Below are positions 309-15,311 of a stretch of DNA of 17,671 bases, in pieces. The DNA lies in NCBI GenBank assembly GCA_964014485.1, contig CAXHAT010000164.1:1-17671 (forward strand), written 5' to 3'. A program made the position numbers and the translations under genes. This DNA comes from an uncultured Deferribacteres bacterium. Lineage in GTDB: Bacteria; Zhuqueibacterota; Zhuqueibacteria; Zhuqueibacterales; Geothermadaptataceae. Each line of letters begins with the position of its first letter. The first letter of the stretch is position 1. The notes under the pieces were generated by a model. The model was not told the DNA's origin and did no database searches. It worked only from the letters and a program-made list of their open reading frames with translations.

Positions 309-1091
309 TTACTCCTGCGCTTCCAGCTTCAAATCCTTGCGCAAAATGTTCCCAAACCGCGTTGCGCTGATTGGATGATCGGCCAACAGGCGACCGTTGT
401 AAACCAGATTAATCATGCCATAAGGCGAGAGCAAGGTCTCCCGCGCTTGCGCCGAGTCGTTCAGTTCATGCAGTTTCAATTCAATGCCATATTTCACCGC
501 AACCGGCGGCATTTCATCCACGGCTTTTCCGATGTAAGGGCATTGATCGGTGTAGATCAATTGCAAGCCTTGAAAACGATCCGATCGATCTTGCCAATTT
601 GTGGGGAACGCGGGCATGGGGGCTGGTTTCACGGACTTTTTCAACAATTGAAAGTGCGGTTCAGCCTCATCCACTTGCTCAAAACCGTGCTTGAGAAAAA
701 CATCCTTGCGCGCCATAAAACTGCCGTCGCTGGTGACGACCGCGACGCCTGATTGCCCGCTCGACGCGGCGTCATCCAGGCATTCTCGGAACAAAGCGGC
801 GGCCATGCCTTCATAGGGAAATTTTGCTGACGCAACCCAAATGCAGTGAATCACAAAATAGTTCGGCGCTTCGACCACCCGCCAAGTGAACTCTCCCGGA
901 ATGTATTCGAGAAAACCTGCTTGTTTGCCGTCATGCGTCAAAATCAGTTTGATGCGAAGTCCTTCTTCAAAGCGTTTGTGCAGCCAGGAACGCTTGGCGA
1001 TATACCCGGGATGCTTTTTGTTCTTCACGCAAAAAAAGCCGAATTCGTCGACGTTGTCGGAATTCACGGTGATAATTTTGTAATCAGCCAT
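309..1091 (-). CDS. GNAT-fold N-acetyltransferase with C-terminal YoaP domain
   Basis: GFLEYIPGE, IHCIWV, F-x-KHGF GNAT elements; C-terminal TDQCPY...SPYGMINLVYNGRLL matches YoaP-like proteins; GGAGG RBS upstream. Confidence 0.85.
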   Translation of the reverse strand: MADYKIITVNSDNVDEFGFFCVKNKKHPGYIAKRSWLHKRFEEGLRIKLILTHDGKQAGFLEYIPGEFTWRVVEAPNYFVIHCIWVASAKFPYEGMAAALFRECLDDAASSGQSGVAVVTSDGSFMARKDVFLKHGFEQVDEAEPHFQLLKKSVKPAPMPAFPTNWQDRSDRFQGLQLIYTDQCPYIGKAVDEMPPVAVKYGIELKLHELNDSAQARETLLSPYGMINLVYNGRLLADHPISATRFGNILRKDLKLEAQE

Positions 1092-1108: not shown

Positions 1109-2836
1109 TTAATTTTGCTCATTCGAAATGTCACTTTTATTTTGTGTCGGCTCGAATGGTAAAAAAACGTCAAATTGCGAGCCTTTGTCAAGCTCGCTTT
1201 GCACGGAAATATTGCCGCCGTGCGCTTCAACGATGAGCTTGACGTAACTCAAGCCCAAGCCGAAGCCCTTCACGTCGTGGATGTTTCCGGTTGAGACGCG
1301 AAAATACTTGTCGAAAACCTGCTTTTGATCTTCGGGGTGCAAGCCAATGCCGTTGTCTCGCACACGAATTTGTACGCCGTTTTCTGCGTTGGCAGTCGCG
1401 ATTTCGATGACGGGCGACCGTTTCGTGTATTTGCTGGCGTTATCGAGCAAATTGAAAATAATGCTTGCCAAATGCACTGCATCTGCTTTGATATGCGAAG
1501 ACGTCGCTTGCAGATTCTCGATAATTTTCCCGCCGCGCTTTTCAATTTGCAAAGTGATTTTTTGCACGGCGTTTTTCAAGAGAGCGTGAACATCGATTTG
1601 CGAGATTTTCAATTCGTACTCTTTGTTCTCGAGCACCGCCATTTGCAGGATTTTCTCGACCTGCTCGCGCATCCGCAGATTTTCATCGCGGACAATGCCG
1701 TTGTAACGCAAGACCTTCTCTTTGTTTTCGAGCGCCGCCGGATTTTCCAACGCCTCGGTCGCCAGTGAAATAGTCGAAATCGGCGTTTTGAATTCGTGCG
1801 TCATGTTGTTGACGAAGTCCATGACCGAAGTCGCGAAACGCTGCTGCCGGAAAATCGTGCGCACGGTGTAGACAAAGCTGAGAACAATAATCGAGACAAG
1901 TACGATGGTGGCAAAAAACAACGCGCCCATTTTTTGAAGCACGAACATGTTTTCATCGGGAAAATGGAGAGCAAGGTCGTGACGCGCGCCGAAGGGTTCA
2001 AAAGGAAAAAGGCGCTCCCGGAAGGGCGTGTCGCGCAGTTCCGGAATCATATCAGCGCGATTGGTCATTCGCAAAGAATCGTTTTTTTCTGAGAAAATGC
2101 CGAAAGCGTGAGGCAGAAAGATGTCATTTTCCGCCAATCTTGTTTGAATGAGCGAATCGAGCTGCACCTGGTTGATGCGTTCTTCAATCGGTTTTCGTTG
2201 CAGCGGATCCAGGTCGGCGAGAATTTTGGTGACCAGGCCGCGTTTCTCATCATCCGATGCGGGCTGGTGCTGCCAGAAGCCGCGCTGTTTGCTGGTGTAA
2301 TGGTAGGTCGAAAACGAGTTCTCGGTCGCCATGCGTATGAGCAGCGAACCGCGCTCCAATAAAGTTGAATCGATCTCTACTTCATATTTTCCGGCGGGAT
2401 GGTCGCCGTTGACCACGTCGGCGAGCTTTTCTCCGTCAATGCTCGTAATCTGGATTTTCACATGTTGCGAATCCGCCAGATCATAGAAAAGCTTTCCGTT
2501 ATCAACGGCAAAACTTGAATTTTCCGGCGTTTTTGTTGTGCGTAATTTCAAGCTGTCGGCAAAAACATAGCGCCTGCCGCTGCTTTTGGAAATGACGCCG
2601 ACGCTGTCATTTTCGGCGTGAAATTTAAAGGCGACGCCGATGGTGTGTTCGAGCGCTTCCAGCCGTTCTAATTCCTGAACAACGCCAACTAACGCGGCGT
2701 TGATGTTTTTTTCAAACGCTTGCCGTCGCAGCTTCCAGGCATTATTTAAAAGCACGATTTGCAAACCGGCCAATCCCGCGAGCGCCAACGTGATCACGCC
2801 CAGGATGATGCGAAGTTGTTTTTTTCGGTTTTTCAT
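1109..2836 (-). CDS. Membrane sensor histidine kinase (HisKA + HATPase_c), Bacteroidota RprX-like
   Basis: Two TM segments around a large periplasmic region; H-box DFVNNMTHEFKTP, N-box NLLDNASKY, G1 DNGIG, F-box FDKYFR, G2 GFGLGL. Confidence 0.95.
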   Translation of the reverse strand: MKNRKKQLRIILGVITLALAGLAGLQIVLLNNAWKLRRQAFEKNINAALVGVVQELERLEALEHTIGVAFKFHAENDSVGVISKSSGRRYVFADSLKLRTTKTPENSSFAVDNGKLFYDLADSQHVKIQITSIDGEKLADVVNGDHPAGKYEVEIDSTLLERGSLLIRMATENSFSTYHYTSKQRGFWQHQPASDDEKRGLVTKILADLDPLQRKPIEERINQVQLDSLIQTRLAENDIFLPHAFGIFSEKNDSLRMTNRADMIPELRDTPFRERLFPFEPFGARHDLALHFPDENMFVLQKMGALFFATIVLVSIIVLSFVYTVRTIFRQQRFATSVMDFVNNMTHEFKTPISTISLATEALENPAALENKEKVLRYNGIVRDENLRMREQVEKILQMAVLENKEYELKISQIDVHALLKNAVQKITLQIEKRGGKIIENLQATSSHIKADAVHLASIIFNLLDNASKYTKRSPVIEIATANAENGVQIRVRDNGIGLHPEDQKQVFDKYFRVSTGNIHDVKGFGLGLSYVKLIVEAHGGNISVQSELDKGSQFDVFLPFEPTQNKSDISNEQN

Positions 2837-3067: not shown

Positions 3068-3140
3068 ATAGCGTTTTAAAGCGTTTGCTTATTTTGTTCG
3101 TCACAAAATCAAACGCGAACTTTTGAGTGGAGAATCTGTG

Positions 3141-3944
3141 ATGAAAAAACTCGTTTTACTTTCCGCCGCACTTTTAATGATCGCTCCCGCCGCTTTTGGG
3201 CAAATGGTTTTTCGCACCCAGGGCGACGGCGAGTCGTTCATGATCCCGGAAGTCGGCGCTCTTTTACTAGACGAAGACGGCAAAGTCAACGTGCGTTTTG
3301 TTATGCCGGAGGCGCGTCGTGGAGAAAAGTACAAAAACGTCGATATTAAGCAAGACGATATTGTGCTTTATCTCAACGGCGTTCGCATCAAAAAAGTGGA
3401 AACGTTTAAGGCAAAGTACGATTCCCTGAAGTTCGGCGAGGAAGTGCAAATTGGCTTGCGTCGCGACAAAAACCGCTTCATCGCTTCTTTCATGAAAGCT
3501 GATCCCAAGGATTTACCGGAAACCGGAATGACGATGGTACGTCGCGGCGGGGCGGGAGAAGGCGAGACTTCGGGCGCTACGACGACCAGCGGCGGCGGCG
3601 AGCGCAGAATGACGATGCAGGGCAGTCCGCTTATGCAAGAAGCGGAAGCGATAAAGCCATTGGTCGAGCTTGCGCTGCTGATTGGCAAGATCGAAGACCA
3701 AGCCGTTGTAGTCGGCAAGCTGCCAATTCCCGGCGCTTTTGATAAAATGGAATTTGAAGAGGAAGACGTTTTGGCCTCCGTTAATGGCGACAAAGTGAAG
3801 TCATACGATCATTTTTTCGAACTTTGGGAAAAAATCAAACTTGGCGACGAGGTTACTCTGAAAGTGACGCGCGACAAGAAAGACGTCAGCGGGAAATTCG
3901 CCAAGCCGGCGCCGCCTGCTGGCATAAATATCAAGACTCGGTAG
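3141..3944 (+). CDS. Secreted tandem PDZ-domain protein
   Basis: ATG 3141 chosen: GGAG at 3129, signal peptide MKKLVLLSAALLMIAPAAFG. Two PDZ-like repeats (IKQDDIVLYLNGVRI...GEEVQIGLRRD; EEEDVLASVNGDKV...GDEVTLKVTRD). No protease domain recognised. Confidence 0.8.
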   Translation: MKKLVLLSAALLMIAPAAFGQMVFRTQGDGESFMIPEVGALLLDEDGKVNVRFVMPEARRGEKYKNVDIKQDDIVLYLNGVRIKKVETFKAKYDSLKFGEEVQIGLRRDKNRFIASFMKADPKDLPETGMTMVRRGGAGEGETSGATTTSGGGERRMTMQGSPLMQEAEAIKPLVELALLIGKIEDQAVVVGKLPIPGAFDKMEFEEEDVLASVNGDKVKSYDHFFELWEKIKLGDEVTLKVTRDKKDVSGKFAKPAPPAGINIKTR

Positions 3945-4004: not shown

Positions 4005-4086
4005 GAGTAACTCCGGAGTGCAAGGCTTGCCTTGCTTTGTTTTCCCAAACTCATCGCAAAGCAAGCTTTGCACTCCGAAGTTACTC
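4005..4086. repeat. 31-bp inverted repeat (GGAGTGC...GCACTCC REP-like element)
   Basis: Arms 4005-4035 and 4056-4086, 28/31 complementary, 20-nt spacer. Confidence 0.85.
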
Positions 4087-4215: not shown

Positions 4216-5715
4216 ATGAACAAATCAAACCTGAATATCTGGTTTTGTCTCGCGTTCTTCATCCTTGCACCGACGCTTGCCCAAGCCCAAAGCGCATATT
4301 ACAACCCAAAGGACGATCAATATCAATTGCTCGGATTGCGGCGCGCCAAGCAGGCCTACGAATTCGCGCAGCAAGATTTTGAACGCAAAAAGGATTTGTA
4401 CGAAAAAAGCCTGATCTCGAAACTGGAAATGGATCGCTCACGCAATTCCTTCGCCGACGCGGAGGTCAACTACCAGCAGGCGCTTTTGGCCGTTTTGTTT
4501 GAAAAACAGTACGTCGCGATCCAGCGCGCGGTCAAAATCCAGAATGAAAAGGGCCAAAAAACCGTCCGGTTGACCATTGCCAATTCATCCGGATCAACAT
4601 CCGAGTTCAAAAAATTGGTTCAGTTCAATGACGAGCTTTTCCGTTCATTACAGCCGGACATCGTCCACGACGTTTACGTTTCTCTGCTCAACGACGAGCA
4701 AGCCATTGTCAGCCAGCCTTATGAAGCCAAAATCGAAGAATTGCATTTTGGCAAGCCAAAGGATTTAACTTTCACGCTTTTGCAGGATTTGGACGCGGTC
4801 ACCGTGAACATCATTTACGGCAACGGCAGCTCGAGTTCGCGCAAGATTTACCTGCAAAAAGACGCTTCGGTAAACAAGGTGCTGGTGCAGTCCGAGCAGT
4901 TTTCGCAGGAAGTTGAACTGGGCGGCTCCGCGAATTTTGACTTGGCGCTGGAACTGTTCAGCGGCGTGAACAACACTTTCAAGCTCGAAGTTGTCAATCT
5001 CACCAACCAAATCAATCGCTACTTCAGTGATCCAGGTTCGAACGCCCGTTTGAGTTATTTTAAATTTACGGAAAGCGCAAATACGCGCAGGGCGTCGCTG
5101 CAAGTTTTTCTGCCGGACAGGCCGACCGATGAAGTGACCATCGATCAATCCATTCCTTTTTACGTCATGGTCATCCCGCGCGATCAGGTCGCTTCGCTGG
5201 GCGACGTGCGCGGGCGCGTCTGGACGGAAGATGAAATCGAAGAACTCAACATCGGCTACGTTCGGCTTGAACTTGTGCCGCGCGGGGTCGGCAAGTTACA
5301 GGTGCGCGCGCCGCAATTGTTTTTTTCGGTCAAGTCCGGCGAATCTGTCGACGTGCCCATCGATTTGGTGAACGACGGTTCGCGGCGCCTGGATAATGTT
5401 GAAATCGAAGTCGATCCGCCGTTGAATTGGACGAAGCAAATTGATCCGGACAATATTGCGCAACTTGGCATTAACGAAGAGAAACGAGCAACGATCAGGC
5501 TTACGCCGCCGTCTGACGCTTCGGTAGGGCGCTACGAAACGCGCGTTCGCACCACCTCGCTTTCCGATGATCAACCGATCGCGGGAGAGGACAAAACCAT
5601 CACCGTCGAGATTCAGCAAGAAGCGAATGTTTTCGGCACGGTTTTGATTTTGGTGCTGATCTTGGGCCTGGTCGGCGGGATTGTGGTGTTCGGCGTGCGG
5701 CTTTCCAGAAGATAA
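4216..5715 (+). CDS. Exported, C-terminally anchored protein: coiled-coil hairpin + Ig-like/NEW3 domains
   Basis: Signal peptide ending AQA; helical hairpin AQQDFERKKDLYEKSLISKLEMD; NEW3-like NDGSRRLDNV..PPLNW..PPSDASVGRY; C-terminal TM helix and basic tail RLSRR. Confidence 0.75.
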   Translation: MNKSNLNIWFCLAFFILAPTLAQAQSAYYNPKDDQYQLLGLRRAKQAYEFAQQDFERKKDLYEKSLISKLEMDRSRNSFADAEVNYQQALLAVLFEKQYVAIQRAVKIQNEKGQKTVRLTIANSSGSTSEFKKLVQFNDELFRSLQPDIVHDVYVSLLNDEQAIVSQPYEAKIEELHFGKPKDLTFTLLQDLDAVTVNIIYGNGSSSSRKIYLQKDASVNKVLVQSEQFSQEVELGGSANFDLALELFSGVNNTFKLEVVNLTNQINRYFSDPGSNARLSYFKFTESANTRRASLQVFLPDRPTDEVTIDQSIPFYVMVIPRDQVASLGDVRGRVWTEDEIEELNIGYVRLELVPRGVGKLQVRAPQLFFSVKSGESVDVPIDLVNDGSRRLDNVEIEVDPPLNWTKQIDPDNIAQLGINEEKRATIRLTPPSDASVGRYETRVRTTSLSDDQPIAGEDKTITVEIQQEANVFGTVLILVLILGLVGGIVVFGVRLSRR

Positions 5716-5858: not shown

Positions 5859-6935
5859 ATGTCCAAATTCCATAAGATTTCAGCACTGCTTTTTCTAACC
5901 CTTCCCATTTTGGCAACCGCACAACAAACCGAACTACCCTGGTTGAAAAACATCAATGCACAAGGCAAGCTCACGGAAATTGAGGCCATACGAGCGGATG
6001 CGAACGTCTCGGTTTCCGACGGAACGTCGTTCTCGACGATCAGCGTTTTTCATGACCGGCAGCGAGCCATTCATCGTCAAATCGACGAAGGGCGAACCAC
6101 GACGATGGGCGTTGAGGGGCGATACATGTGGATTTATGACGGCCAGACAGAAAAAGAAGCGCCGCCGTTCGTAGCAGATCTGGTTTTGGGCCATCAAATC
6201 CATGCGCTGGTTTTGTTTTTTGATCGCCTTTATTCTCCTCTTGATACGCCAAAAACGGCGCAATTTGCAGGCGAGGAGTGCGTTGCTCTTGCGAGCCAAA
6301 ATGATCCCTGGACTTTTTATTACGAACGGAATGGGCGACCTGTCGGGATGGAAATGAAGCGAGAAGGAGAACCGCCTGTCACTTTCAGATTCAGCGATTG
6401 GCGCACCATCGACGAGATGCTCTTGCCCTTTGCCGTGTTGATCGACGACGGCAGCAATCAATTTCAGTACAAGTACTCCGAAATTACCATCAATAAAGGC
6501 TCCATCTCTGAGTTCCGCGCGCCTGAAGCAGTTTTGACCGATGAGCAAAAATTATTGCGTCTGCACCGGATTTTTATGGACGGCCATTTGTTTGGCGAGG
6601 TCGCCGAAATGAGCGCGGCGCACGGAGATTCGGTCGTGATTGTCGGCAGAGGCGATGTTCACGAAATGCCGGGCGAGCAATCCGCCGCAACGCTGGGCGA
6701 TATCCTCGCACGCAGCAATTATTCGGTCTACGACGACATGATTCGCCCGAAAGTCGAGATTTCCGAAGACGGCAGCCTGGGCTGGGTTATCGCGCAGGTT
6801 TTGGGCAAAGGCGTGGATAATAACTCCGGCAATTCTTTTGAGTTCGTCTGCGCCTGGATTGAGCTTTACAAAAAAACAGACGGCAAATGGCGATTCACTG
6901 GCAACGTCTCCAATTTTCGACCTGAAAAACGTTAA
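5859..6935 (+). CDS. Secreted protein: LolA-like beta-sheet N-domain + C-terminal NTF2/SnoaL-like (DUF4440-type) domain
   Basis: Signal peptide ending ATA; FSDWRTIDEMLLPF motif; C-terminal VEISEDGSLGWV...WIELYKKTDGKWRFTGNVS is typical of NTF2-like folds. Confidence 0.65.
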   Translation: MSKFHKISALLFLTLPILATAQQTELPWLKNINAQGKLTEIEAIRADANVSVSDGTSFSTISVFHDRQRAIHRQIDEGRTTTMGVEGRYMWIYDGQTEKEAPPFVADLVLGHQIHALVLFFDRLYSPLDTPKTAQFAGEECVALASQNDPWTFYYERNGRPVGMEMKREGEPPVTFRFSDWRTIDEMLLPFAVLIDDGSNQFQYKYSEITINKGSISEFRAPEAVLTDEQKLLRLHRIFMDGHLFGEVAEMSAAHGDSVVIVGRGDVHEMPGEQSAATLGDILARSNYSVYDDMIRPKVEISEDGSLGWVIAQVLGKGVDNNSGNSFEFVCAWIELYKKTDGKWRFTGNVSNFRPEKR

Positions 6936-6941
6936 ACGCAT

Positions 6942-8471
6942 ATGACCAAGCTTGCATATTTTACAGTTTTCCTACTTGCACTCGCCGCATGCGAGAACCG
7001 CGAAAGACCCGAAGCATTCTTGAAAAATGTAGCTGAAAAGATGGGTTCGCTTCAAAATCTAACGAAAGCAGGTTCGATTTCGATTTATGCGTCTGGAACG
7101 ATGAACAAGACCGCTGAAGGCCAGGGATTGTCGCCGAACAGCCTGTCCAACGGCCCGTACTCCGAAGTTCTAGCAGTCGATCTTGAGAGCGGCGCGGTTT
7201 TCCGCGACTACAAAGAATCCCGATTCGATGGTACGCTCGAACGTTTCGGCGAATTATTTTCGTCCGACACCCTGCGTCAACTTCTCATTCGTGACTACGG
7301 CATCGTCATTCCGTTTCGGGCCCTAAGCTTTGCTGAAGAGCGGGCGCAACTGAGACGCAGAATTCCTCACTTTCTAGTCAACGAACTCCTTGAAAAACCG
7401 GGTGGATTGAAGTATGGAGAATCAGAAAATGGTTTCGCCAGCGTCGAGGGCGGCCTTGCGAGCGGGCAGGCTGTGACGCTCGATGTGGATCCATCGTCTC
7501 AATTCGTCCGCAAAGTCTCATTTGACTGGTTGATTCCCGGACGAGGAAGGGGCGAGATCGATTGGTCGTATGACGACTACAGGCAGGTCGCCGATGGCGT
7601 GCATGTGCCATTTGCGTACAGCTCGCGGGTCGGGAAGATCGATTATATCACCATGACCGTCGACAGCGTCCTGTTGGACAGGTCGGAGAATTTCCAACCG
7701 CCGAGCGATCTGTCGGTTTTGCCCGTTCGTGATCAGCAACCGGATAGAGACCGCACCCCATTGGAATTTCGAGAACTGGCTAAAGGGGTTTTCATCGTGC
7801 CTGAAGTTCGAAGCGGATTTGCTCCGCTCGTCGCCGAATTTGACGAGTTTCTGGTCGTCGTTGACGCACCGGCGAGTTTCCCGCTGCTTGGTCAAATCCC
7901 GCCGAGTGAGACTGATCCAGGGGCTTCGATGAGTTGGCCTTGTTTGGAATTTGTCTCGGCGTTGGAAAGAAAGTGGCCAAATAAGCGCGTCGCCTACGTC
8001 GTGCTCACGCATCATCATGAAGATCACATTGGCGGGATTCGCGCCTTTGTTGCTTCTGGCGCAACCGTCTTGGGCGGTAAGCACGCGGTCGCGGCGGCGC
8101 AAGCCCTCGCCAATTTGTCGTCGCCTTTGATTGATGATCAATTGGGAGACTTGAGAGCGTCTTTTCAGGCGGAAACTGTGGATGAAACTCGCAGAATCAG
8201 TGACGGCCAACAGGTGCTGGACATCATTCCAATGGGCGAGAATCCCCACGCTGAAGGTATGTTGGTCATCTCCTTGCCCAATTTGAAAATGCTCTACGTG
8301 AGCGATTTTGTTACGCCCGGCCCTGTTGACGGTTATCCCGAGCCTAATCATGCCGCGCTTGACCGTTTTTTTGCAAGATGGGTTGATGAAACCGGCTTGG
8401 CTGCTGACTCGGTGTGGTCGATGCATGGTCGTATGCCGTTGACCAAAGCGCATTTTGAGCGCTTGAAATGA
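6942..8471 (+). CDS. Lipoprotein with C-terminal MBL-fold metallo-hydrolase domain
   Basis: Lipobox LAAC; THHHEDHIGG (HxHxDH); downstream NPHAEG, VSDF and SMHG candidate metal ligands. Confidence 0.85.
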   Translation: MTKLAYFTVFLLALAACENRERPEAFLKNVAEKMGSLQNLTKAGSISIYASGTMNKTAEGQGLSPNSLSNGPYSEVLAVDLESGAVFRDYKESRFDGTLERFGELFSSDTLRQLLIRDYGIVIPFRALSFAEERAQLRRRIPHFLVNELLEKPGGLKYGESENGFASVEGGLASGQAVTLDVDPSSQFVRKVSFDWLIPGRGRGEIDWSYDDYRQVADGVHVPFAYSSRVGKIDYITMTVDSVLLDRSENFQPPSDLSVLPVRDQQPDRDRTPLEFRELAKGVFIVPEVRSGFAPLVAEFDEFLVVVDAPASFPLLGQIPPSETDPGASMSWPCLEFVSALERKWPNKRVAYVVLTHHHEDHIGGIRAFVASGATVLGGKHAVAAAQALANLSSPLIDDQLGDLRASFQAETVDETRRISDGQQVLDIIPMGENPHAEGMLVISLPNLKMLYVSDFVTPGPVDGYPEPNHAALDRFFARWVDETGLAADSVWSMHGRMPLTKAHFERLK

Positions 8472-8515
8472 CAAGGCTTAACCGCGGACGCCCTGAACTT
8501 TGGAAAAGTAAATTC

Positions 8516-9685
8516 ATGAATAACACGCAAACGTTCATCACCTTCTTGCTCATTATTTTATCAACGTCTTGTATGGCGCAGGATGACGTTTTGATAAAAA
8601 CTTACGGGGGCAACGGCTCTGATCGAGGCATTCATATTATTCAGGCTTCGGACAGCAATTTTGTTGTTGTCGGCAACACGACGGTAGAAGGGAAAAATTT
8701 GGACGTTTACCTTTTAAAATGCAACAGTTCCGGCGATACATTGTGGACGCGAAAATTTGGCGGGCCGGAAGATGACAATGGCTGGAGTATAAAAGAAACT
8801 TCAGACAGGGGCTACATTATTACTGGATTCACCGAAAGTTACGGCGCCGGCAAAAACGATGTCTTGCTCATGAAAACAGACGTGAATGGCGTCGAGCAAT
8901 GGAGCAAAACTTTCGGCGGTTCAGGTGATGACATTGGCTGGTCAATAGCAATAAATGATGATGGCGGGTTCACGATTGCAGCGCAAACCGACGGTTACGG
9001 CAACGGAGAACTGGACGCCTACTTGATCAGAGCGGACGCGAATGGCGACACGTTGTGGACCAGGACTTTTGGAGGCCCGAAAACGGATCGTGTTTTTTCC
9101 GTCGCTTTAGCCGATGACGGAAGCGCCCTATTGGCTGGAATTACCTATTCTTACGGCGCTGGTGATAGAGATGCCTGGCTGCTTAAAACTGGCAGCAGCG
9201 GAGATTTGCTTTGGCAAAAAACTTATGGCGGCCCCGGCTACGATAACGCCCATGGGGTGATTGTGAATAGCGAAAATGAAATCATTTTGACCGGCTACGG
9301 CGATTATTGGGGAAATGAAGAAAAACGGAATATTTTCCTGAAAAAAATCACGATGGATGGGGAAGACGTGTGGACTCAAAAGTACGGCGGGCCGGAGAAT
9401 GATCGTGCCATGACGGTTTTTCAAACCCAAGACAACGGGTATGTTATGACTGGCTTCACCCAAAGTTTTGGCCAGGGCGCCTGGGATGCTTACGTCTTAA
9501 GAACTGATGCAGCGGGAGATACTTTGTGGACCAGCACTTATGGTGCAACGGCTCCTGATTTCGGCTATGACGTCATTCAAAGCGTTCAAGGCGACTATTT
9601 TGTGACGGGGTGGAGTCACAGTTTTGGACAGCCGGAAGGAGGCTTGCTTTTGATTAAGATAATTGATGTTACGCGTCAGTTCTAA
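8516..9685 (+). CDS. Secreted beta-propeller repeat protein
   Basis: ATG 8516 gives signal peptide MNNTQTFITFLLIILSTSCMAQ (ORF-track start 8468 is an alternative). About 7 repeats of W-x-KT(F/Y)GG..D.G..I....DGGY...G.T.S.G.G..D..L.K.D..G. Confidence 0.8.
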   Translation: MNNTQTFITFLLIILSTSCMAQDDVLIKTYGGNGSDRGIHIIQASDSNFVVVGNTTVEGKNLDVYLLKCNSSGDTLWTRKFGGPEDDNGWSIKETSDRGYIITGFTESYGAGKNDVLLMKTDVNGVEQWSKTFGGSGDDIGWSIAINDDGGFTIAAQTDGYGNGELDAYLIRADANGDTLWTRTFGGPKTDRVFSVALADDGSALLAGITYSYGAGDRDAWLLKTGSSGDLLWQKTYGGPGYDNAHGVIVNSENEIILTGYGDYWGNEEKRNIFLKKITMDGEDVWTQKYGGPENDRAMTVFQTQDNGYVMTGFTQSFGQGAWDAYVLRTDAAGDTLWTSTYGATAPDFGYDVIQSVQGDYFVTGWSHSFGQPEGGLLLIKIIDVTRQF

Positions 9686-9878: not shown

Positions 9879-10667
9879 ATGGAAACGGAAACCACGACAC
9901 AAACAAACGGCTCGACGAACGGCGCGGAAGTTTTGCTGCAAGCCGTCGATTTGAGCAAGCGTTATGAAGACGGCGTTTTGGCGCTGGATCGCGTGAATTT
10001 TAATGTTAAAAAAGGCGAAGTTTTCGCCATGCTTGGCGGCAACGGCGCAGGGAAAACGACCACGATCAACATCTTCCTGAATTTCATCGAACCGACCGAT
10101 GGCGAGGCGCGCGTGCGAAACGTCGCGACGCACAAGGAGCCTTTGCAAGCCAAGCAAAATTTGGCGTTTGTTTCGGAAAACGTCATGCTCTATCCGAATT
10201 TCACCGCCCTGCAAAACCTCGATTTTTTTGCCCGGCTGGGAGGCAAGACTGAATATTCCAGAGATGATTATCGCAAAGTCCTGCTCCGGGTTGGATTACA
10301 GGAAGAAGCGCACGGCAAGCGTTTGAAAGGCTTTTCGAAAGGCATGCGGCAAAAATGTGGCATCGCCATCGCGATTTTGAAAGACGCACCCGCGATTTTG
10401 CTCGACGAACCGACTTCCGGCCTCGATCCCAAAGCCGGATTTGAATTTATCCGATTGCTGGAAGAATTGCGTGACGAAGGCAAGGCCATCCTTATGTCCA
10501 CCCATGATATTTTCCGCGCCAAAGAGGTCGCCGACACGATTGGCATTATGAACCAGGGACAACTCGTCATGAACGCCCCGCGCAACGAACTCGGCGGCGA
10601 GGATTTGGAGAAATTGTACATGCAGTACATGGCCGGGTATATGGATGAAGCGGCTGTTGTTCAGTAA
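9879..10667 (+). CDS. ABC transporter ATP-binding protein (ABC-2 exporter type)
   Basis: Walker A GGNGAGKTT, signature FSKGM, Walker B ILLDEP, H-loop STHD. Confidence 0.96.
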   Translation: METETTTQTNGSTNGAEVLLQAVDLSKRYEDGVLALDRVNFNVKKGEVFAMLGGNGAGKTTTINIFLNFIEPTDGEARVRNVATHKEPLQAKQNLAFVSENVMLYPNFTALQNLDFFARLGGKTEYSRDDYRKVLLRVGLQEEAHGKRLKGFSKGMRQKCGIAIAILKDAPAILLDEPTSGLDPKAGFEFIRLLEELRDEGKAILMSTHDIFRAKEVADTIGIMNQGQLVMNAPRNELGGEDLEKLYMQYMAGYMDEAAVVQ

Positions 10668-10735: not shown

Positions 10736-12160
10736 ATGCTGGGTTTATTGATACAAAAAGAACTGAAAGAAGTCATCGGCTCGACGAAATTCGCGGTGAC
10801 GTTCGCCGTGTGCTCGGTTTTGATTTTGTTGGCGTTTTATACCGGCGCGCAAAATTACGAAGTCAGCCGCCAGCAGTATGAAGCGTCGAAGACGGAAAAT
10901 CTGCGCCAGATGGAAGGTCTGACTGATTGGATGATGCTGCGAAACCACCGTATCTTTCGTTCGCCGGAGCCGTTGGCCGCGCTAGTGACCGGCGTTTCGA
11001 ATGATGTTGGCCGCTCAATTACAGTCCGTGGGCAGGGTTCGCTCGCGGCGGAAGATTCGCGCTTTAATGACGAACCGATTTTCGCGGTATTTCGTTTTCT
11101 CGACCTTGATTTTATCTTTCAAATCGTGCTCTCTCTGTTCGCCATTTTGTTCGCCTACGACGCGATCAACGGCGAAAAAGAGCGCGGTACGCTGCGACTG
11201 GTTTTCGCCAACGCCATTCCGCGCGCGAAATTCATTCTTGGCAAAATCATCGGCTCTTTTACGGCGCTGGCCGTGCCGCTGCTGATTCCCATACTTCTCG
11301 GCTGTCTGCTGCTACCGATTTTGGGCGTGCATTTGAACACGGACGAATGGCTGCGCCTCGGCATGGTCATTCTTGCGGGGATGCTCTATTTCGGCGTGTT
11401 TTTGATGCTTTCGGTTTTCATTTCCTCCATCACTCGCCGTTCATCAAGCTCATTTTTGCTTTTGCTTGTTGTCTGGATTTTTTCCGTGCTCATCATCCCG
11501 CGCTCCGCCGTGTTGATGGCGGGACGCGCCGTTGACGTGCCTTCGGTTGATGAAATTGCTTCTCAAAAAAGTCGCCTGAGCCGTCAGTTATGGACGGAAG
11601 ATCGCGAAAAAATGTCTTCGTTCAAGCCAACGGACAGCTCCGATCCACAGAAGATGATGGAAGAGTTTCAAAAGATGATGCAGGATAACGCCGACGAGCG
11701 CGAGAAGCGGATGAGCGACCTTGACGCCAAATTATCGGAAGAGCGCAACAATCGTTTGCGGACGCAGGAAAGTGCGGCTTTCTCTTTTGCCCGAATCTCC
11801 CCGACGGCGGCGTTCTCGTTGGCCGTGACCAATTTGACGGGCAGTTCGACTGATTTAAAACAGCATTTTCTTAATGAAGCGGCGGCTTATCAGCAGTCTT
11901 ACGCTGAATTCATGAAGGAAAAAACCGGGATGAACATCGGCGGCGGCGGGTTTGTATTTCGGATGCGGCATTCGGGGGACGGAGAAGAAGAGGAAGAAAA
12001 ACCCATTGATCCGCGTGAACTGCCGGAATTCAAGTACAGCGGCATTCCAATGGACAAAGTGGTAACTGCCGCCCTGCCGGAAATGGGCATCCTGGCGGTG
12101 TTTAACCTGCTGTTTTTTGCCGGCGCATTTGCGATGTTTATGCGATTTGATTTGAGATAA
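10736..12160 (+). CDS. ABC-2 family permease with large extracytoplasmic loops (DUF3526-like), subunit 1
   Basis: IQKELK N-terminus, YDAINGEKERGTLRL motif, about 6 TM helices, large helical loop, RFDLR C-terminus; GGAG RBS. Confidence 0.9.
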   Translation: MLGLLIQKELKEVIGSTKFAVTFAVCSVLILLAFYTGAQNYEVSRQQYEASKTENLRQMEGLTDWMMLRNHRIFRSPEPLAALVTGVSNDVGRSITVRGQGSLAAEDSRFNDEPIFAVFRFLDLDFIFQIVLSLFAILFAYDAINGEKERGTLRLVFANAIPRAKFILGKIIGSFTALAVPLLIPILLGCLLLPILGVHLNTDEWLRLGMVILAGMLYFGVFLMLSVFISSITRRSSSSFLLLLVVWIFSVLIIPRSAVLMAGRAVDVPSVDEIASQKSRLSRQLWTEDREKMSSFKPTDSSDPQKMMEEFQKMMQDNADEREKRMSDLDAKLSEERNNRLRTQESAAFSFARISPTAAFSLAVTNLTGSSTDLKQHFLNEAAAYQQSYAEFMKEKTGMNIGGGGFVFRMRHSGDGEEEEEKPIDPRELPEFKYSGIPMDKVVTAALPEMGILAVFNLLFFAGAFAMFMRFDLR

Positions 12161-12250: not shown

Positions 12251-13522
12251 ATGTGGACAAACGCACAAAATTCGACAATCGGTCAGATTGCCTTTTTTGC
12301 GGTGATCTTTGCCGTTAATACCTCGCAGGCGCTCGCCCAAGACTGGACGCAATGGCTCGGCCCGAACCGCGACGGACGAATTCCCGCCCAGAGCGTGCCT
12401 GGGACGCTTTCTGAAAAACCCGATTTAATTTGGGAGACGACGGTTGGAGGCGGTTATTCTTCGCCTTTGATTTTTGATGATCAGGTTTTTGTTCACACTC
12501 GAATCGATGAACAAGAAGTTGTCGCCTGTCTGGATTTGAAGACCGGTAAACAAATTTGGCGAAAAACGAACGCCGCGCCAATGCAGCGCAATCAATACGC
12601 CGTCAAGCACGGCAAAGGCCCTTTCGCGACCCCGGCGATCCATTCCGGCAAACTTTTCACCGTCGGCGTAACCGGCGTTTTGACTTGTTTTGACATCAAA
12701 AACGGAAATGTGCTCTGGCGAAAAGTCTACAAGGAATCCGGTTTAAATACAGAGAAATTCTTTTGCGGCAACACTGTCTCGCCGCTGATCTACAAAAATA
12801 TGTGCATCACTTTCATCGGCGATGACGACGCCGGGGCACTAACGGCGTATGACGTCGAGACCGGCGAGGAAGTCTGGAGTTGGAAGGAAGACAACCCCGG
12901 CTACGCTTCGCCAATTCTGGTCACATCAGGCGGCGTCGCACAAATTGTCACGCTGTCACAAAACGGCGTCATCGGCGTTTCCGCGGAAAATGGCAAGCTG
13001 TTATGGCAAATTCCTTTTGTCTCTGAATGGAAAGAAAATATTCCATCGCCGGTCTTTTTCGATGATATGATCATCTATTCTGGCGTCGGGCGAGGAACAA
13101 TGAGCGTGAAGCTTGAAAAAAGCAACGGCGGGTGGAAGACGACGGAATTGTGGCAGAACAAAGAAATTTCAATGTATATGAATTCGCCTGTATTGCACGA
13201 AGCGAAGCTCTTCGGCCTCTCGCAGAAACGGCGCGGTCAATTCTTTAGTTTGGACGCCAAAACCGGAAAAACGTTTTGGACCAACGAGGGCCGAGAAGGG
13301 GCGAACGCCTCCTTGTTTTTGGGCGGTGACTCGTTCTATTCGTTGACGACGGAAGGCGTACTGAAAATATTTGAAGCGACTTCGGAAGCATTTCGGCTTC
13401 GAGGTGAACTTAGTCTCGCGGAAACATCGACCTGGGCGACCCCGGCGTTCGTTGAGAATCATATTTTGATCAAAGCCGGAGAGAATCTCAGGCTGTTTGC
13501 CGCTCCGAGAAAAACGCAATAG
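12251..13522 (+). CDS. Secreted PQQ-binding-like beta-propeller protein
   Basis: Signal peptide ending ALA-Q; DWTQWLGPNRDG; repeated YSSP/ATP...LD.KTGK..W blades. Confidence 0.88.
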   Translation: MWTNAQNSTIGQIAFFAVIFAVNTSQALAQDWTQWLGPNRDGRIPAQSVPGTLSEKPDLIWETTVGGGYSSPLIFDDQVFVHTRIDEQEVVACLDLKTGKQIWRKTNAAPMQRNQYAVKHGKGPFATPAIHSGKLFTVGVTGVLTCFDIKNGNVLWRKVYKESGLNTEKFFCGNTVSPLIYKNMCITFIGDDDAGALTAYDVETGEEVWSWKEDNPGYASPILVTSGGVAQIVTLSQNGVIGVSAENGKLLWQIPFVSEWKENIPSPVFFDDMIIYSGVGRGTMSVKLEKSNGGWKTTELWQNKEISMYMNSPVLHEAKLFGLSQKRRGQFFSLDAKTGKTFWTNEGREGANASLFLGGDSFYSLTTEGVLKIFEATSEAFRLRGELSLAETSTWATPAFVENHILIKAGENLRLFAAPRKTQ

Positions 13523-13596: not shown

Positions 13597-13762
13597 GGAA
13601 TCACATCACCACTTCGTGGTTTAGTAGAAGGAAACGACCGATTTTCTATAATCCTACCATCCCTCCGGGATTACGGTACTGAAAAATCCCGAAGGGATAA
13701 AATGATTATAGAAAGGCGGTTCCAAATGGTATGACCAAACTCTGAAAGAGTGACATAATTCC
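13597..13762. mobile_element. Non-autonomous palindromic element with four mini-hairpins (IS200/IS605 Y1-type MITE-like)
   Basis: Inner arms 13643-13672 / 13685-13714 (25/30); outer arms 13597-13622 / 13737-13762 (17/26); each arm holds a 5-bp-stem, 3-nt-loop hairpin. No transposase in the window. Confidence 0.65.
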
Positions 13763-13835: not shown

Positions 13836-15311
13836 ATGTTAAAAACACTCATCGAAAAAGAACTCAAAGCCATCATTCTCAGCCCGAAATTCGCGGCGAC
13901 GTTTGCGGTGTGCGCACTGCTCATCGTCCTGAGCGTATTTGTTGGAATCAAGGAATATAACAACGCCGTTGCGCAGTACGAAACCGTCACCAGCCTAGCG
14001 GAGCAGGAGCTGCGTGAACAGAATTCCTGGAGTTCGCTTGGAACGCGTATTTCGCGAGAACCGGAGCCAATGCAAATTTTTTCTTCCGGCGTACATAATG
14101 ACGTCGGGCGTTTGACGGCGATTTCTTCATGGCAGGAAATCAAACTGCGGAACAGCAATTATTCGGACGATCCGATTTTCGCCGTTTTCCGGTTTGTCGA
14201 TGTGGCGTTTATCGTGCAAATCGTTCTGTCGCTGTTCGCGATTTTGTTTACTTACGACGCAATCAACGGCGAACGCGAGGGAGGAACGCTGCAATTGACT
14301 TTTTCCAACGCCGTGCCGCGCGTGCAGTACATCGTTTCCAAATTTATCGGCTCATGGCTTGGTCTGGTTCTGCCGCTGCTCGTACCTATTCTGCTCGGAC
14401 TGCTCCTGCTCTTGCTTTTCAATGTGCCTTTGACCGGCGATGATTGGGGGAAAATGACGGCCATGATGGGGGCGTCTCTGCTGTATTTTACATTTTTCAT
14501 CGCTTTGGGCATTCTTGTTTCCGCGCTGACAAAACAATCCGCGACCTCGTTTCTGTTCTTGCTTGTCACTTGGGTAACGCTCGTTTTGATCATCCCGCGC
14601 GTGGGCGTAATGGCCGCCGGGCATTTGTACGAAGTGCCGACCGTGGCCGAAGTTGAGGCCAAACGCGACGGTTTTGCCAAAGACAAATGGGAAGAGCATT
14701 TCCAGGGCATGGAAGATCGCTGGAGCGCCCGCAACGTTGAAATGCAAGGCATGGACGAATCTGAGCGCGAAGAATATCGTGACGACAATGAATGGGGGTG
14801 GATGCAGGAAGACGCTGAAGAGCGCAAAAAAGTCACAGCGGAAATTAGCGACTACGGCAGAAAGCTGACCGAAGACCTGCGCAATCGCAAGGCGGAACAG
14901 GAAAAGTTCGGGTTCACAATTTCACGCTTTTCCCCCGCTTCCGCGTTTCAGTTGGCGGTAATGAATCTCGCTGGAACCAACATCGATTTGAAAACGCGCA
15001 ACGAAGACGCGATGGACGATTATCGTACTGCATTCAAAGATTATCGTGATAAGAAACAAAAAGAAAACGGCGGCGGCGGGGGCATCCGAATTTCGATGAG
15101 TTCCGGCGAAAGCGGAGGCGCGTTCAAAATCTCCGGCGACCGCGATCAAGGCACGCTCGACTTGACCGACATGCCAAAATTCGTCGCGCCACAGCACACA
15201 TTCTCAGCGGGCTTTTCCCCGGCGATGACGGATATTGGCCTGCTGAGTCTGTTCACGATCATCGCATTCGCCGCCGCATTCGTTGCGTTTTTGAAGTACG
15301 ACGTTCGCTAA
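13836..15311 (+). CDS. ABC-2 family permease with large extracytoplasmic loops (DUF3526-like), subunit 2
   Basis: Paralogue of 10736-12160: IEKELK, PIFAVFRF, YDAINGEREGGTL, RFSP, KYDVR. Confidence 0.9.
   Translation: MLKTLIEKELKAIILSPKFAATFAVCALLIVLSVFVGIKEYNNAVAQYETVTSLAEQELREQNSWSSLGTRISREPEPMQIFSSGVHNDVGRLTAISSWQEIKLRNSNYSDDPIFAVFRFVDVAFIVQIVLSLFAILFTYDAINGEREGGTLQLTFSNAVPRVQYIVSKFIGSWLGLVLPLLVPILLGLLLLLLFNVPLTGDDWGKMTAMMGASLLYFTFFIALGILVSALTKQSATSFLFLLVTWVTLVLIIPRVGVMAAGHLYEVPTVAEVEAKRDGFAKDKWEEHFQGMEDRWSARNVEMQGMDESEREEYRDDNEWGWMQEDAEERKKVTAEISDYGRKLTEDLRNRKAEQEKFGFTISRFSPASAFQLAVMNLAGTNIDLKTRNEDAMDDYRTAFKDYRDKKQKENGGGGGIRISMSSGESGGAFKISGDRDQGTLDLTDMPKFVAPQHTFSAGFSPAMTDIGLLSLFTIIAFAAAFVAFLKYDVR

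Follow-up and report, generated by a model that had tools for sequence, protein, structure and literature searches.

What purpose is served by a helical hairpin of the kind found in TolC-contacting adaptors, when it stands at the head of a chain of immunoglobulin-like domains that is anchored at its far end, is the question raised by one gene in the window, by which we mean the whole 17,671-nucleotide stretch of DNA that was analyzed. The prevailing view of tripartite efflux and secretion systems is that they depend on adaptors of a single build, with a hairpin inserted in a set of lipoyl, barrel and MP domains and a membrane anchor at the N-terminus. The family studied here carries that hairpin on a scaffold that is unrelated and anchored at the opposite end, beside an ABC-2 pump, and we consider that the encoded protein (hereafter the target) probably represents a kind of pump adaptor not described before. 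A listings-level literature search on the topics NEW3, DUF3526, COG1470, PF10633 and ABC-2 adaptors found no description of the protein family or its system.

Domain architecture of the target

The target open reading frame occupies positions 4216-5715 (+ strand), begins with an ATG at 4216 and encodes 499 residues. In the preliminary description it had been given as 4333..5715; the frame and sequence were right and the start was not, as 4333 corresponds to residue 40 and the true start lies upstream. An AF2 model based on a 103-sequence alignment (pLDDT 92, pTM 0.74) showed a helix at residues 34-63, a loop at 64-68, a second helix at 69-96, beta domains at ~100-212, 222-343 and 347-467, and a helix at 472-498 with a basic tail. 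The architecture is a signal peptide, a helical hairpin, three beta-sandwich domains of which the last is NEW3 (PF10633), and a C-terminal TM helix; the model thus confirmed both the layout proposed earlier (hairpin, beta-rich domains, C-terminal TM helix) and that the segment taken for a hairpin folds as one.

Residues 1-25 (4216..4290, +) look like a cleavable signal peptide, given a hydrophobic N-terminus ending in LAQA/QS and low pLDDT over residues 1-30, and a lipobox-like motif was seen in just 3 of 95 relatives. After the hairpin (residues 34-96; 4315..4503, +) comes the Ig-like beta-sandwich D1 (residues ~100-215; 4513..4860, +), delineated by AF2, VIA and a weak Ig_GlcNase match; VIA matched it to the Ig-like domains of SgrA (5fce_B, Z 9.3) and CsxA (2vzo_A, Z 9.2), and it carries a conserved, nearly invariant S-x-P-Y-E loop, in which P168 is invariant. 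The beta domain D2 (residues ~220-345; 4873..5250, +), which has two short helices in the AF2 secondary structure, varies in length between relatives. D3 (residues ~347-468; 5254..5619, +) is a NEW3/NPCBM_assoc Ig-like domain, with a PF10633 match at residues 373-445 (E 4.5e-14; 52.8 bits against a gathering cut-off of 24.4) and VIA matches to glycosidase Ig domains (Z 12-12.6); NEW3 was present in all 95 relatives. The AF2 helix of residues 472-498, the basic tail RLSRR and the stop codon fill 5629..5715 (+). All 95 relatives had a hydrophobic stretch at the C-terminus, which upheld the earlier proposal of a C-terminal anchor, and the tail was basic in 88 of 95; this pattern of TM segment and basic, presumably cytoplasmic tail places the protein in the inner membrane.

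Comparison of the full target with PDB sequences by phmmer gave no matches at E<=1, Foldseek with the whole model returned generic strings of Ig domains (integrin legs, HYDIN ASH domains), and a four-copy complex prediction for residues 26-215, run without controls, scored 0.26 against a mark of 0.42, a value that weighs neither for nor against the assembly.

Hairpin likeness and tip motif

The preliminary description had likened the hairpin to those of the MFP/PAP adaptors, and this likeness was supported in both fold and sequence profile. VIA superposed the hairpin on MexA (1vf7_A) with Z 10.7 and an rmsd of 1.2 A over 65 aa, other matches including 4l8j (Z 11.2) and EmrA (8zar, Z 9.7), so that MexA, EmrA and a Bacteroides MFP were its best fold matches; for residues 26-218 the top ranks were held by 4l8j, MexA, EmrA and a MacA-MexA chimera (Z 10.7-9.5). 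VIA Z scores of 9-11 are also attained by unrelated helical hairpins (a designed protein at 9.1, PrgA at 9.0). An Atlas structure search with residues 26-100 gave nine non-self rows (TM by query 0.87-0.89), seven of which were named as or carried efflux-adaptor families, the other two carrying at most Biotin_lipoyl, in a minority of their members; going by predicted structure, the closest hairpins would be those of Bacteroidota adaptors. In Foldseek, residues 26-218 drew generic Ig strings and Kir channels (two helices and an Ig domain), with MFPs only at E ~5e-4. The hairpin has the length of that of MexA, and its length was constant in 88 of 103 relatives.

At the sequence level, the NCBIfam models CzcB, MdtN, RND_mfp and EmrA matched target residues 35-91 (E 1.3e-5 to 7e-3), and the four most-matched families among 95 diverse relatives were all adaptors (RND_mfp 43, CzcB 29, EmrA 10, MdtN 8). 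Because the match is limited to the hairpin, these scores fell far under the curated cut-offs (24.5 bits against 319.3 for CzcB and 17 against 94.9 for RND_mfp; likewise in the 95 relatives). A hairpin profile searched against the PDB yielded 15 matches with weak E-values (best 0.0019), of which 12 were adaptors, including all of the top 11; phmmer with the target hairpin alone gave seven matches among PDB sequences (E 0.28-2.7), none to an adaptor. The sequence similarity is thus visible at the profile level only. Our local Pfam copy identified no hairpin family in six proteins (E<=1) or in the 95 relatives (E<=0.01), and precomputed labels placed PF25893 and/or PF25876 on 33 of 120 relatives; the latter is named HH_MFP_RND in the Atlas rows, and the former we take to be HH_CzcB.

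The tip motif of adaptor hairpins is given as RxxxLxxxxxxS in PMC3391258, and contact of this RLS motif with TolC is described there and in PMC4446572. The target matches the published form exactly with R57, L61 and S68 (4384..4419, +); the earlier rendering, 'ER...L....IS..E.D', was a loose version of the motif, which is nevertheless present. Among 103 diverse relatives the tip residues are kept, as the adaptor proposal had presupposed, with R in 66, L in 92 and S in 76 (plus T in 9, for S/T in 85). All three stood at aligned columns in 51 of the 103, and the L61-S68 spacing was identical in every one. The motif fell within the first 130 aa of 60 relatives, compared with 15 on average and at most 24 in 200 composition-preserving shuffles, and by this comparison of sequences its occurrence is above chance.

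Outside the hairpin the target departs from adaptors such as MexA, AcrA, MacA, EmrA, HlyD and CzcB, with which it shares a coiled-coil hairpin of MexA length, the RxxxLxxxxxxS tip and a profile-level similarity restricted to that element. According to PMC4446572, the MFP/PAP hairpin is spliced into the lipoyl domain, whose two halves flank it. In the target the hairpin is instead N-terminal; only ~8 mature residues precede helix 1, making an N-terminal lipoyl half-domain impossible, and a contiguous Ig-like sandwich follows. The MFP-model matches cover residues 35-91 only, bearing out the earlier remark that the lipoyl and barrel domains are missing, and three Ig-like domains stand in place of the beta-barrel and membrane-proximal domains. 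The anchor is a C-terminal TM helix rather than an N-terminal TM segment or lipid, the exception being permease-fused forms, which retain an N-terminal membrane helix. Lacking lipoyl, beta-barrel and membrane-proximal domains, and anchored at its C-terminus, the target is ruled out as an MFP proper.

A conserved ABC-2 transporter operon

The target gene belongs to a conserved ABC-2 transporter operon, in the order PDZ protein, target, ABC ATPase and two ABC-2 permeases, which was conserved in 33 of 35 loci; the target-ATPase-permease order was likewise kept in 33 of 35, under several phylum labels and at 56-70% identity. The inner-membrane partner is therefore encoded not 'elsewhere' but in the target's own operon. 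Membership in this operon had been missed in the preliminary description. The first gene (3123..3944, +, probably starting in fact with the ATG at 3141) encodes a secreted tandem-PDZ protein (PDZ_2, E 6.4e-15, two stretches) and is the immediate upstream neighbor of the target gene in 32 of 35 loci. The ATPase gene (9879..10667, +; PF00005, E 1.1e-26; DrrA/RbbA/GldA-type matches) immediately follows that of the target in 33 of 35. Permease a (10736..12160, +), also conserved in 33 of 35 loci, matched PF12679 (E 1.6e-33), DUF3526 and NosY (7o0y_D, E 7e-9), and its DUF3526 insert of ~180 aa is predicted to be periplasmic. Its paralog, permease b (13836..15311, +; PF12679, E 1.1e-29; DUF3526, E 7.7e-8), was found in 27 of 35 loci; in seven of the other eight the locus ends before it, and the eighth (L030) has four distant permeases instead.

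Divergent from these genes is a sensor histidine kinase (1109..2836, - strand; HisKA and HATPase_c) that probably regulates the operon. Its position and strand are shared by 21 of the 35 loci, in most cases together with a regulator of the OmpR type; within the window no regulator adjoins it. The operon in the window is interrupted by four extra same-strand genes. Three of these (5859..9685, +) encode an unknown protein of 358 aa, an MBL-fold lipoprotein and an unknown 405-aa repeat protein, for which Pfam gave, respectively, a weak DUF4440 match, Lactamase_B (E 1.3e-10) and none; none of the 35 loci has an equivalent of these genes, which are confined to this genome. The fourth, a PQQ/BamB-like beta-propeller gene (12251..13522, +; PQQ_2, E 4.2e-33), lies between the permease genes and is absent from that position in the 35 loci.

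In lying directly beside inner-membrane transporter genes (33 of 35 loci), the target gene resembles those of MFP/PAP adaptors, a likeness that is one of genetic linkage only. The locus likewise resembles ABC-2 (type V) modules with NosY-like permeases in having PF00005 and two PF12679 genes, here in one operon with the target. The succession of adaptor, ATPase and two ABC-2 permeases recalls the ybhG-ybhF-ybhS-ybhR operon, described in PMC7190983 as encoding an MFP, an ATPase and two ABC-2 permeases, and YbhF is described as having two fused NBDs (PMC13739795). YbhG, unlike the target, is a canonical MFP, and the target operon differs from YbhFSR in its PF12679/NosY-like permeases with DUF3526 inserts and in its PDZ protein. 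Another MFP-dependent ABC-2 exporter is YhiI-RbbA-YhhJ, and the ATPase and permease b of the target locus match the RbbA model weakly.

Possible roles of the hairpin

The reading we favor, although we put it at a little under an even chance, is that the target serves a conserved ABC-2 (type V) exporter as its adaptor-like periplasmic subunit, with the hairpin linking the exporter to a TolC-family channel. Besides the target, such a system would include the secreted tandem-PDZ protein, a single ATPase and a pair of paralogous ABC-2 permeases whose periplasmic inserts are large, and a divergent two-component sensor would usually lie beside it. A cleavable signal peptide would direct the target out of the cytoplasm, and its C-terminal helix would fix it in the inner membrane; in the periplasm the three Ig-like domains would form a series with very short linkers, and the free N-terminal end would be the 63-residue coiled-coil hairpin, putatively homologous to MFP/PAP hairpins and including their TolC-contacting RLS tip. 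Most likely the hairpin would bridge from the ABC-2 pump to a channel of the TolC family whose gene lies elsewhere. The module would then operate in the manner of YbhG-YbhFSR or MacA-MacB-TolC, except that another scaffold takes the place of the lipoyl, barrel and MP domains. The parts of this scheme that we infer are that the target binds the permeases and touches an outer-membrane factor, along with its oligomeric state and the substrate. BLASTP, which is less sensitive than a profile search, found no TolC-family gene within ~10 kb in the 35 loci or in the window; the host is a diderm whose genome holds 23 OEP-domain matches spread over 13 places, amounting to about a dozen TolC-family genes.

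The chief alternative, which we rate as only somewhat less likely, is that the hairpin works inside the inner-membrane complex of the same exporter and never touches an outer-membrane channel, for example by packing on the helical periplasmic DUF3526 inserts or on the PDZ protein; the RLS-like residues would then be kept for hairpin folding, as an inheritance from an MFP ancestor. The lack of a linked outer-membrane factor gene is in keeping with this, as is the report in PMC4446572 of hairpin PAPs in Gram-positive bacteria, which have no outer membrane. In some lineages the target is fused to an ABC-2 permease, as seen in an uninterrupted permease-target ORF (L044) and in fusion proteins from two sources; a homolog search limited to longer proteins had given no match, and the fusions came from the broader family listing. 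In the fused forms the hairpin begins ~5 residues past the membrane helix that follows the permease, and, if the junction stays uncleaved, this short tether to hairpin helix 1 would keep the base of the hairpin at the inner membrane; we estimate that the tip of an uncleaved form would reach only ~45 A from that membrane. The fused forms argue against the simple geometry proposed earlier, in which a stalk of Ig domains presents the hairpin. The number of Ig repeats also varies, D1 being repeated three more times in long relatives, and these extra repeats argue against a fixed stalk length. Fusion further implies a 1:1 stoichiometry with the permease; that of MacA:MacB is 6:2. Against confinement to the inner complex, the junction keeps a signal-peptide-like n-h-c pattern ending in V-Y-S/Q and could be cleaved, and the hairpin length is fixed at that of MexA. 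Conservation points both ways, as R57, L61 and S68 rank among the best-kept hairpin positions across the 103 distant relatives, whereas in 34 close homologs the hairpin base and N-terminal peptide are near-invariant and more conserved than the tip, which varies. Full-length relatives with no hairpin also exist (P0193 and P0210), and a metagenome scan with P0193 found no relative of it.

It seems unlikely to us that the target instead acts, as NosD does on NosFY, as a periplasmic effector or as a scaffold that handles substrate and is driven by the ABC-2 motor, in which case the Ig/NEW3 domains would bind glycan, lipid or protein cargo with help from the PDZ protein and the hairpin would be a dimerization or docking handle. 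Such a role would suit the NosY-like permeases, the conserved secreted PDZ protein and the presence of NEW3, CARDB and Ig_GlcNase-type domains, which are typical of carbohydrate-active and surface proteins, and it would suit the S-x-P-Y-E loop of D1, which recurs in the extra Ig repeats, and the secreted hydrolase genes inserted in the operon in several genomes. It leaves unexplained why the hairpin is MFP-like in particular and has a conserved RLS tip, however, no ligand-binding site was identified in the target, and the NosD fold, a beta-helix, is unrelated to that of the target. Least credible of all is that the target is a NEW3 protein of the surface or adhesin type, independent of the transporter that happens to lie beside it, and that its hairpin is a generic coiled coil, a reading which would fit the generic Ig strings from Foldseek of the whole model, the overlap of hairpin Z scores with unrelated hairpins and the names of relatives in databases ('NEW3 domain-containing' or 'hypothetical') but conflicts with the gene order kept across several phyla, the permease fusion, the adaptor-specific profile matches and the signs of an inner-membrane location in the C-terminal TM helix and basic tail.

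COG1470/NEW3 single-pass proteins share with the target a NEW3 domain followed by a C-terminal TM segment and differ in having no N-terminal hairpin; target residues ~95-495 aligned structurally with COG1470-type clusters (387-408 aa) from Pseudomonadota, Bacillota and Methanobacteriota, at Atlas TM values (0.39-0.45) that serve as a lead only. We offer as a tentative proposal, itself somewhat short of even odds, that a COG1470-type Ig/NEW3 protein with a C-terminal anchor acquired an MFP hairpin, giving an undescribed class of periplasmic adaptor that, in KSB1, Ignavibacteria, Zixibacteria and allied phyla, would connect outer-membrane channels with ABC-2 exporters of the NosY-like kind; if so, the adaptor hairpin would be a portable module workable on a scaffold of opposite topology. 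Should the hairpin dock a TolC-type channel, the definition of an adaptor would widen, the hairpin would prove to be an exchangeable docking module, hundreds of proteins now called 'NEW3 domain-containing' or 'hypothetical' would gain a function, and an envelope export system would be identified in poorly studied phyla. Should it not dock, an RLS hairpin alone would be an unreliable predictor of outer-membrane-factor binding.

A further comparison is with KpsE, the polysaccharide co-polymerase of the KpsMT-KpsE capsule exporter, which also pairs a helical periplasmic element with an ABC-2 transporter. VIA matched it to the target (8tsh_E; Z 8.9, rmsd 1.7 A over 63 aa), at a Z that is not specific for helical hairpins, and no sequence similarity between the two was detected. 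KpsE also differs in how it is anchored and in forming a cage of helices. The target family itself is large and well conserved, with 639 cluster representatives at 50% identity, and was present in 42 of 151 genomes sampled in the host phylum.

Architecture and topology of the protein

The open reading frame at 4216-5715 on the forward strand encodes a 499-residue protein and encloses the span 4333-5715 originally assigned to it. Judged from their sequence, residues 1-25 look like a cleavable signal peptide. An AlphaFold2 model built from an alignment of 103 diverse relatives was confident (mean pLDDT 92, pTM 0.74); it has a hairpin of two helices (residues 34-63 and 69-96) joined by a five-residue loop, three beta domains (about residues 100-212, 222-343, and 347-467) connected by linkers of 3-9 residues, and a C-terminal helix (residues 472-498) followed by RLSRR. 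The third beta domain is a NEW3/NPCBM_assoc domain (PF10633, E-value 4.5e-14), and the protein is the sole NEW3 protein in its genome. A C-terminal hydrophobic segment was present in all 95 relatives tested and a basic tail in 88 of them, and we therefore assign an N-out, C-in topology with a C-terminal anchor. The preliminary description, which had proposed an alpha-hairpin followed by beta-rich domains and a C-terminal anchor, was right about this overall plan.

In structural comparison, the first Ig-like sandwich (D1) came closest to SgrA and to the Ig domain of CsxA, each at a Z of about 9. D1 and the second Ig-like domain, D2, vary widely in length among relatives; three long relatives (P0145, P0157, and P0162, 718-797 residues) keep the N-terminal hairpin and have three extra D1-type Ig copies, each carrying a conserved P-Y-E loop. 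Its three residues (P168, Y169, E170) vary little, if at all, within the family, which makes the loop a candidate binding site.

Relationship of the hairpin to efflux adaptors

NCBIfam models of efflux adaptors matched residues 35-91, the best being CzcB (E-value 1.3e-5), followed by MdtN (6e-4), RND_mfp (2e-3), and EmrA (7e-3). When 95 relatives were scanned singly, the four commonest families were all adaptors (RND_mfp 43, CzcB 29, EmrA 10, MdtN 8), with rarer matches to a HlyD-named model (5), DevB (3), a second EmrA model (1), and MexA (1); a weak match to the TolC (OEP) model in six of the 95 is expected for such a coiled coil. As a single sequence, the hairpin found no adaptor among PDB sequences. 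A profile built from 34 loci gave 15 matches (E-value ≤10), 12 of them adaptors, and the best-ranked 11, which included the TriAB fusion, EmrA, AcrA, MexJ, MacA, and 4l8j, were all adaptors, with weak E-values (best 0.0019).

Structural comparisons pointed the same way. Residues 32-96 superposed on MexA (1vf7_A, 71-135) with no gaps at 1.2 Å (Z 10.7). With a model of the fragment 26-218 (pLDDT 80), the top four of 48,161 chains were adaptor hairpins (4l8j, Z 10.7; MexA, 10.3; EmrA, 9.7; a MacA-MexA chimera, 9.5), in a ranking where unrelated hairpins score Z about 9 and AcrA, a second EmrA entry, HlyD, and ZneB lie further down. An Atlas structure search with residues 26-100 returned nine non-self rows, mostly from Bacteroidota (TM by query 0.87-0.89); seven were named as or carried efflux-adaptor families, and the other two carried at most Biotin_lipoyl, on a minority of members.

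PMC3391258 and PMC4446572 give RxxxLxxxxxxS as the TolC-contact motif at the hairpin tips of adaptors of the MFP family. The protein matches this motif exactly, with R57, L61, and S68 placed on both sides of the loop. Among 103 relatives (25-68% identity), the arginine is kept in 66, the leucine in 92, and the serine in 76 (threonine in a further 9), bearing out the expectation that homologs would conserve the tip; all three residues occur together in 51, and the spacing from L to S is the same in every relative. Counted from L39 to L91, the hairpin spans 53 residues in 88 relatives and 60, i.e., one extra heptad, in 14. Sixty of the 103 sequences carry the motif within their first 130 residues, compared with a mean of 15 and a maximum of 24 in 200 shuffles. 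In the gapless MexA register, R57, L61, and S68 align with entry residues 96, 100, and 107. If the numbering of 1VF7 starts at the mature N-terminus (precursor minus 23), these positions would be MexA R119, L123, and S130. Those are the RLS residues of MexA named in PMC4446572. That the hairpin resembles those of HlyD, AcrA, and MacA, as first suggested, was thus upheld by profile, fold, and tip motif, and we consider it homologous to adaptor hairpins with high, if incomplete, confidence.

The whole protein is not an MFP. As outlined in PMC4446572, adaptors are anchored N-terminally and contain a lipoyl domain that is interrupted by the hairpin, followed by a beta-barrel and a membrane-proximal domain. 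Here, in contrast, only about eight mature residues precede helix 1, the domain after the hairpin is a contiguous Ig-like sandwich, and the scores against the adaptor family models lie an order of magnitude under their cut-offs; the lack of lipoyl and beta-barrel domains had been anticipated. Atlas clusters labeled COG1470 from Pseudomonadota, Bacillota, and Methanobacteriota (387-408 residues) align with residues ~95-495 only, at TM values (0.39-0.45) that we treat as a lead only. The hairpin profile matched 108 of 150 representatives; most of the 42 misses were fragments truncated at the N-terminus. Two full-length relatives, P0193 and P0210, have no hairpin. Most simply, the protein can be read as a COG1470-type Ig/NEW3 membrane protein that gained an adaptor hairpin at its N-terminus.

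The exporter operon and the role of the protein

The operon context had escaped the preliminary description. We compared ORFs by BLASTP across 35 loci from species-representative genomes (42-70% identity), with record titles including KSB1, Ignavibacteria/Melioribacter, Zixibacteria, Calditrichaceae, and 'Bacteroidota'. A secreted PDZ protein was encoded directly upstream in 32 loci and an ABC ATPase directly downstream in 33 (L012 stops at the target gene, and L030 is ordered differently). Permease a was present in 33 loci and permease b in 27; seven of the other eight end before permease b, and L030 has four distant permeases instead. The permeases are PF12679/NosY-like (7o0y_D, E-value 7e-9), and their ~180-residue insert (DUF3526) is predicted to be periplasmic from hydrophobic segments and charge distribution.

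In some relatives the permease and target are one protein. P0194 (892 residues) comprises an ABC-2 permease, a membrane helix, the hairpin, Ig domains, NEW3, and the TM helix; P0271 (924 residues, complete), which belongs to the same cluster but comes from a different source, has the same layout, and locus L044 has an unbroken 928-residue permease-target ORF (PF12679 at 4-444, PF10633 at 806-876) followed by the ATPase gene. Such fusion supports physical association of the target with the permease, and the fused forms would have 1:1 stoichiometry. In L048 the two genes are separate, with five permease paralogs upstream; two short ORFs between the last permease and the target homolog (6251-6902) look like a HicA/HicB toxin-antitoxin pair, at the point where L044 joins permease and target into one ORF. 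The signal sequence of the target homolog in L048 contains a lipobox-like L-L-G-C.

The domain architecture, a hairpin of adaptor type whose tip is conserved and whose length is fixed, exporter-operon membership, and permease fusion are established features, and the protein is very probably a subunit of an ABC-2 exporter. More tentatively, the favored reading is an adaptor that docks to an outer-membrane factor: its TM helix and NEW3 domain would bind the two permeases, the Ig domains would reach across part of the periplasm, and the hairpin would contact a TolC-family channel whose gene lies elsewhere. OEP-domain matches number 23 in the genome, at 13 places, and BLASTP placed no TolC-family gene within about 10 kb in any locus. 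The genes for MacAB likewise lie apart from tolC. A precedent with the same gene order is ybhG-ybhFSR, which encodes an MFP, an ATPase, and two ABC-2 permeases, as set out in PMC7190983.

Somewhat less probably, the hairpin works inside the exporter complex. In the fused proteins helix 1 begins about five residues past the extra membrane helix, so that unless the junction is cleaved (it retains a signal-peptide-like pattern ending V-Y-S/Q) the hairpin base sits on the inner membrane, out of reach of a TolC tip; against this, relatives keep the R57/L61/S68 tip at fixed spacing. A NosD-like effector or scaffold is improbable, and an unrelated surface protein is scarcely credible. We classify the protein as related to known efflux adaptors and ABC-2 accessory subunits, with a putative outer-membrane-channel contact.

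Family distribution and neighboring genes

Our literature search found no description of the hairpin-NEW3 family or its exporter system, and databases name the relatives 'NEW3 domain-containing', 'uncharacterized membrane protein', or 'hypothetical'. The family is large, with 1255 matches among candidates scored and 639, 342, and 186 representatives at E-values ≤1e-3, ≤1e-10, and ≤1e-30, respectively. Within the phylum it is patchy, occurring in 42 of 151 genomes (a count that takes in the unpublished G144 and G087) and in 30 of 105 good-quality ones.

Extra genes on the same strand break up the operon in the window: three between the target and the ATPase (5859-9685, encoding an unknown protein, an MBL-fold lipoprotein, and an unknown repeat protein), and a PQQ/BamB-like propeller gene between permeases a and b (12251-13522). 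Other KSB1-type loci have other secreted enzymes at comparable positions, such as PF00144 beta-lactamase-family genes in L004 (8324-9919) and L002 (2781-4628) and an S41 peptidase in L001 (8592-10124). The operon seems to attract genes for periplasmic enzymes as an insertion hotspot, and a functional link with them is possible. The repeat protein (8468-9685, forward strand) is secreted, has 405 residues, and has no Pfam match at E-value ≤0.1; its start overlaps the MBL gene stop by 4 nt, the gene has three DNA repeats (labeled D3) about 312 nt apart, and W-x-x-x-(Y/F)-G-G recurs along the protein, suggesting repeats of a beta-propeller-like kind.

A divergent histidine kinase gene accompanies the operon in 21 of the 35 loci, usually with an OmpR-type regulator. 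Downstream of the kinase, the window has a 260-residue ORF with no Pfam match at E-value ≤0.1 (309-1091, reverse strand) in the position held by the regulator in 19 related loci, and its kinase therefore appears orphaned. Speculatively, the neighboring sensor kinase and the hydrolase genes inserted in several genomes would fit an inducible role in envelope detoxification or export.

Two long intergenic inverted repeats lie at 4005-4086, between the PDZ and target genes (31-nt arms, 90% complementary, including a terminator-like stem and T-run), and at 13637-13720, between the PQQ-like gene and permease b (36-nt arms, 81% complementary). Since most related loci have these gene pairs abutting or overlapping, the repeats may be insertion scars or attenuators. 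Seven of the 35 loci have nearby a gene for a large DUF5916 and CBM9-like protein (about 890-910 residues; PF19313, E-values 1e-62 to 2e-68), namely L015, L016, L018, and L019 (about 15.2-17.9 kb, reverse strand), L020 (468-3194), L007, and L012; in four of the seven it is convergent with permease b.
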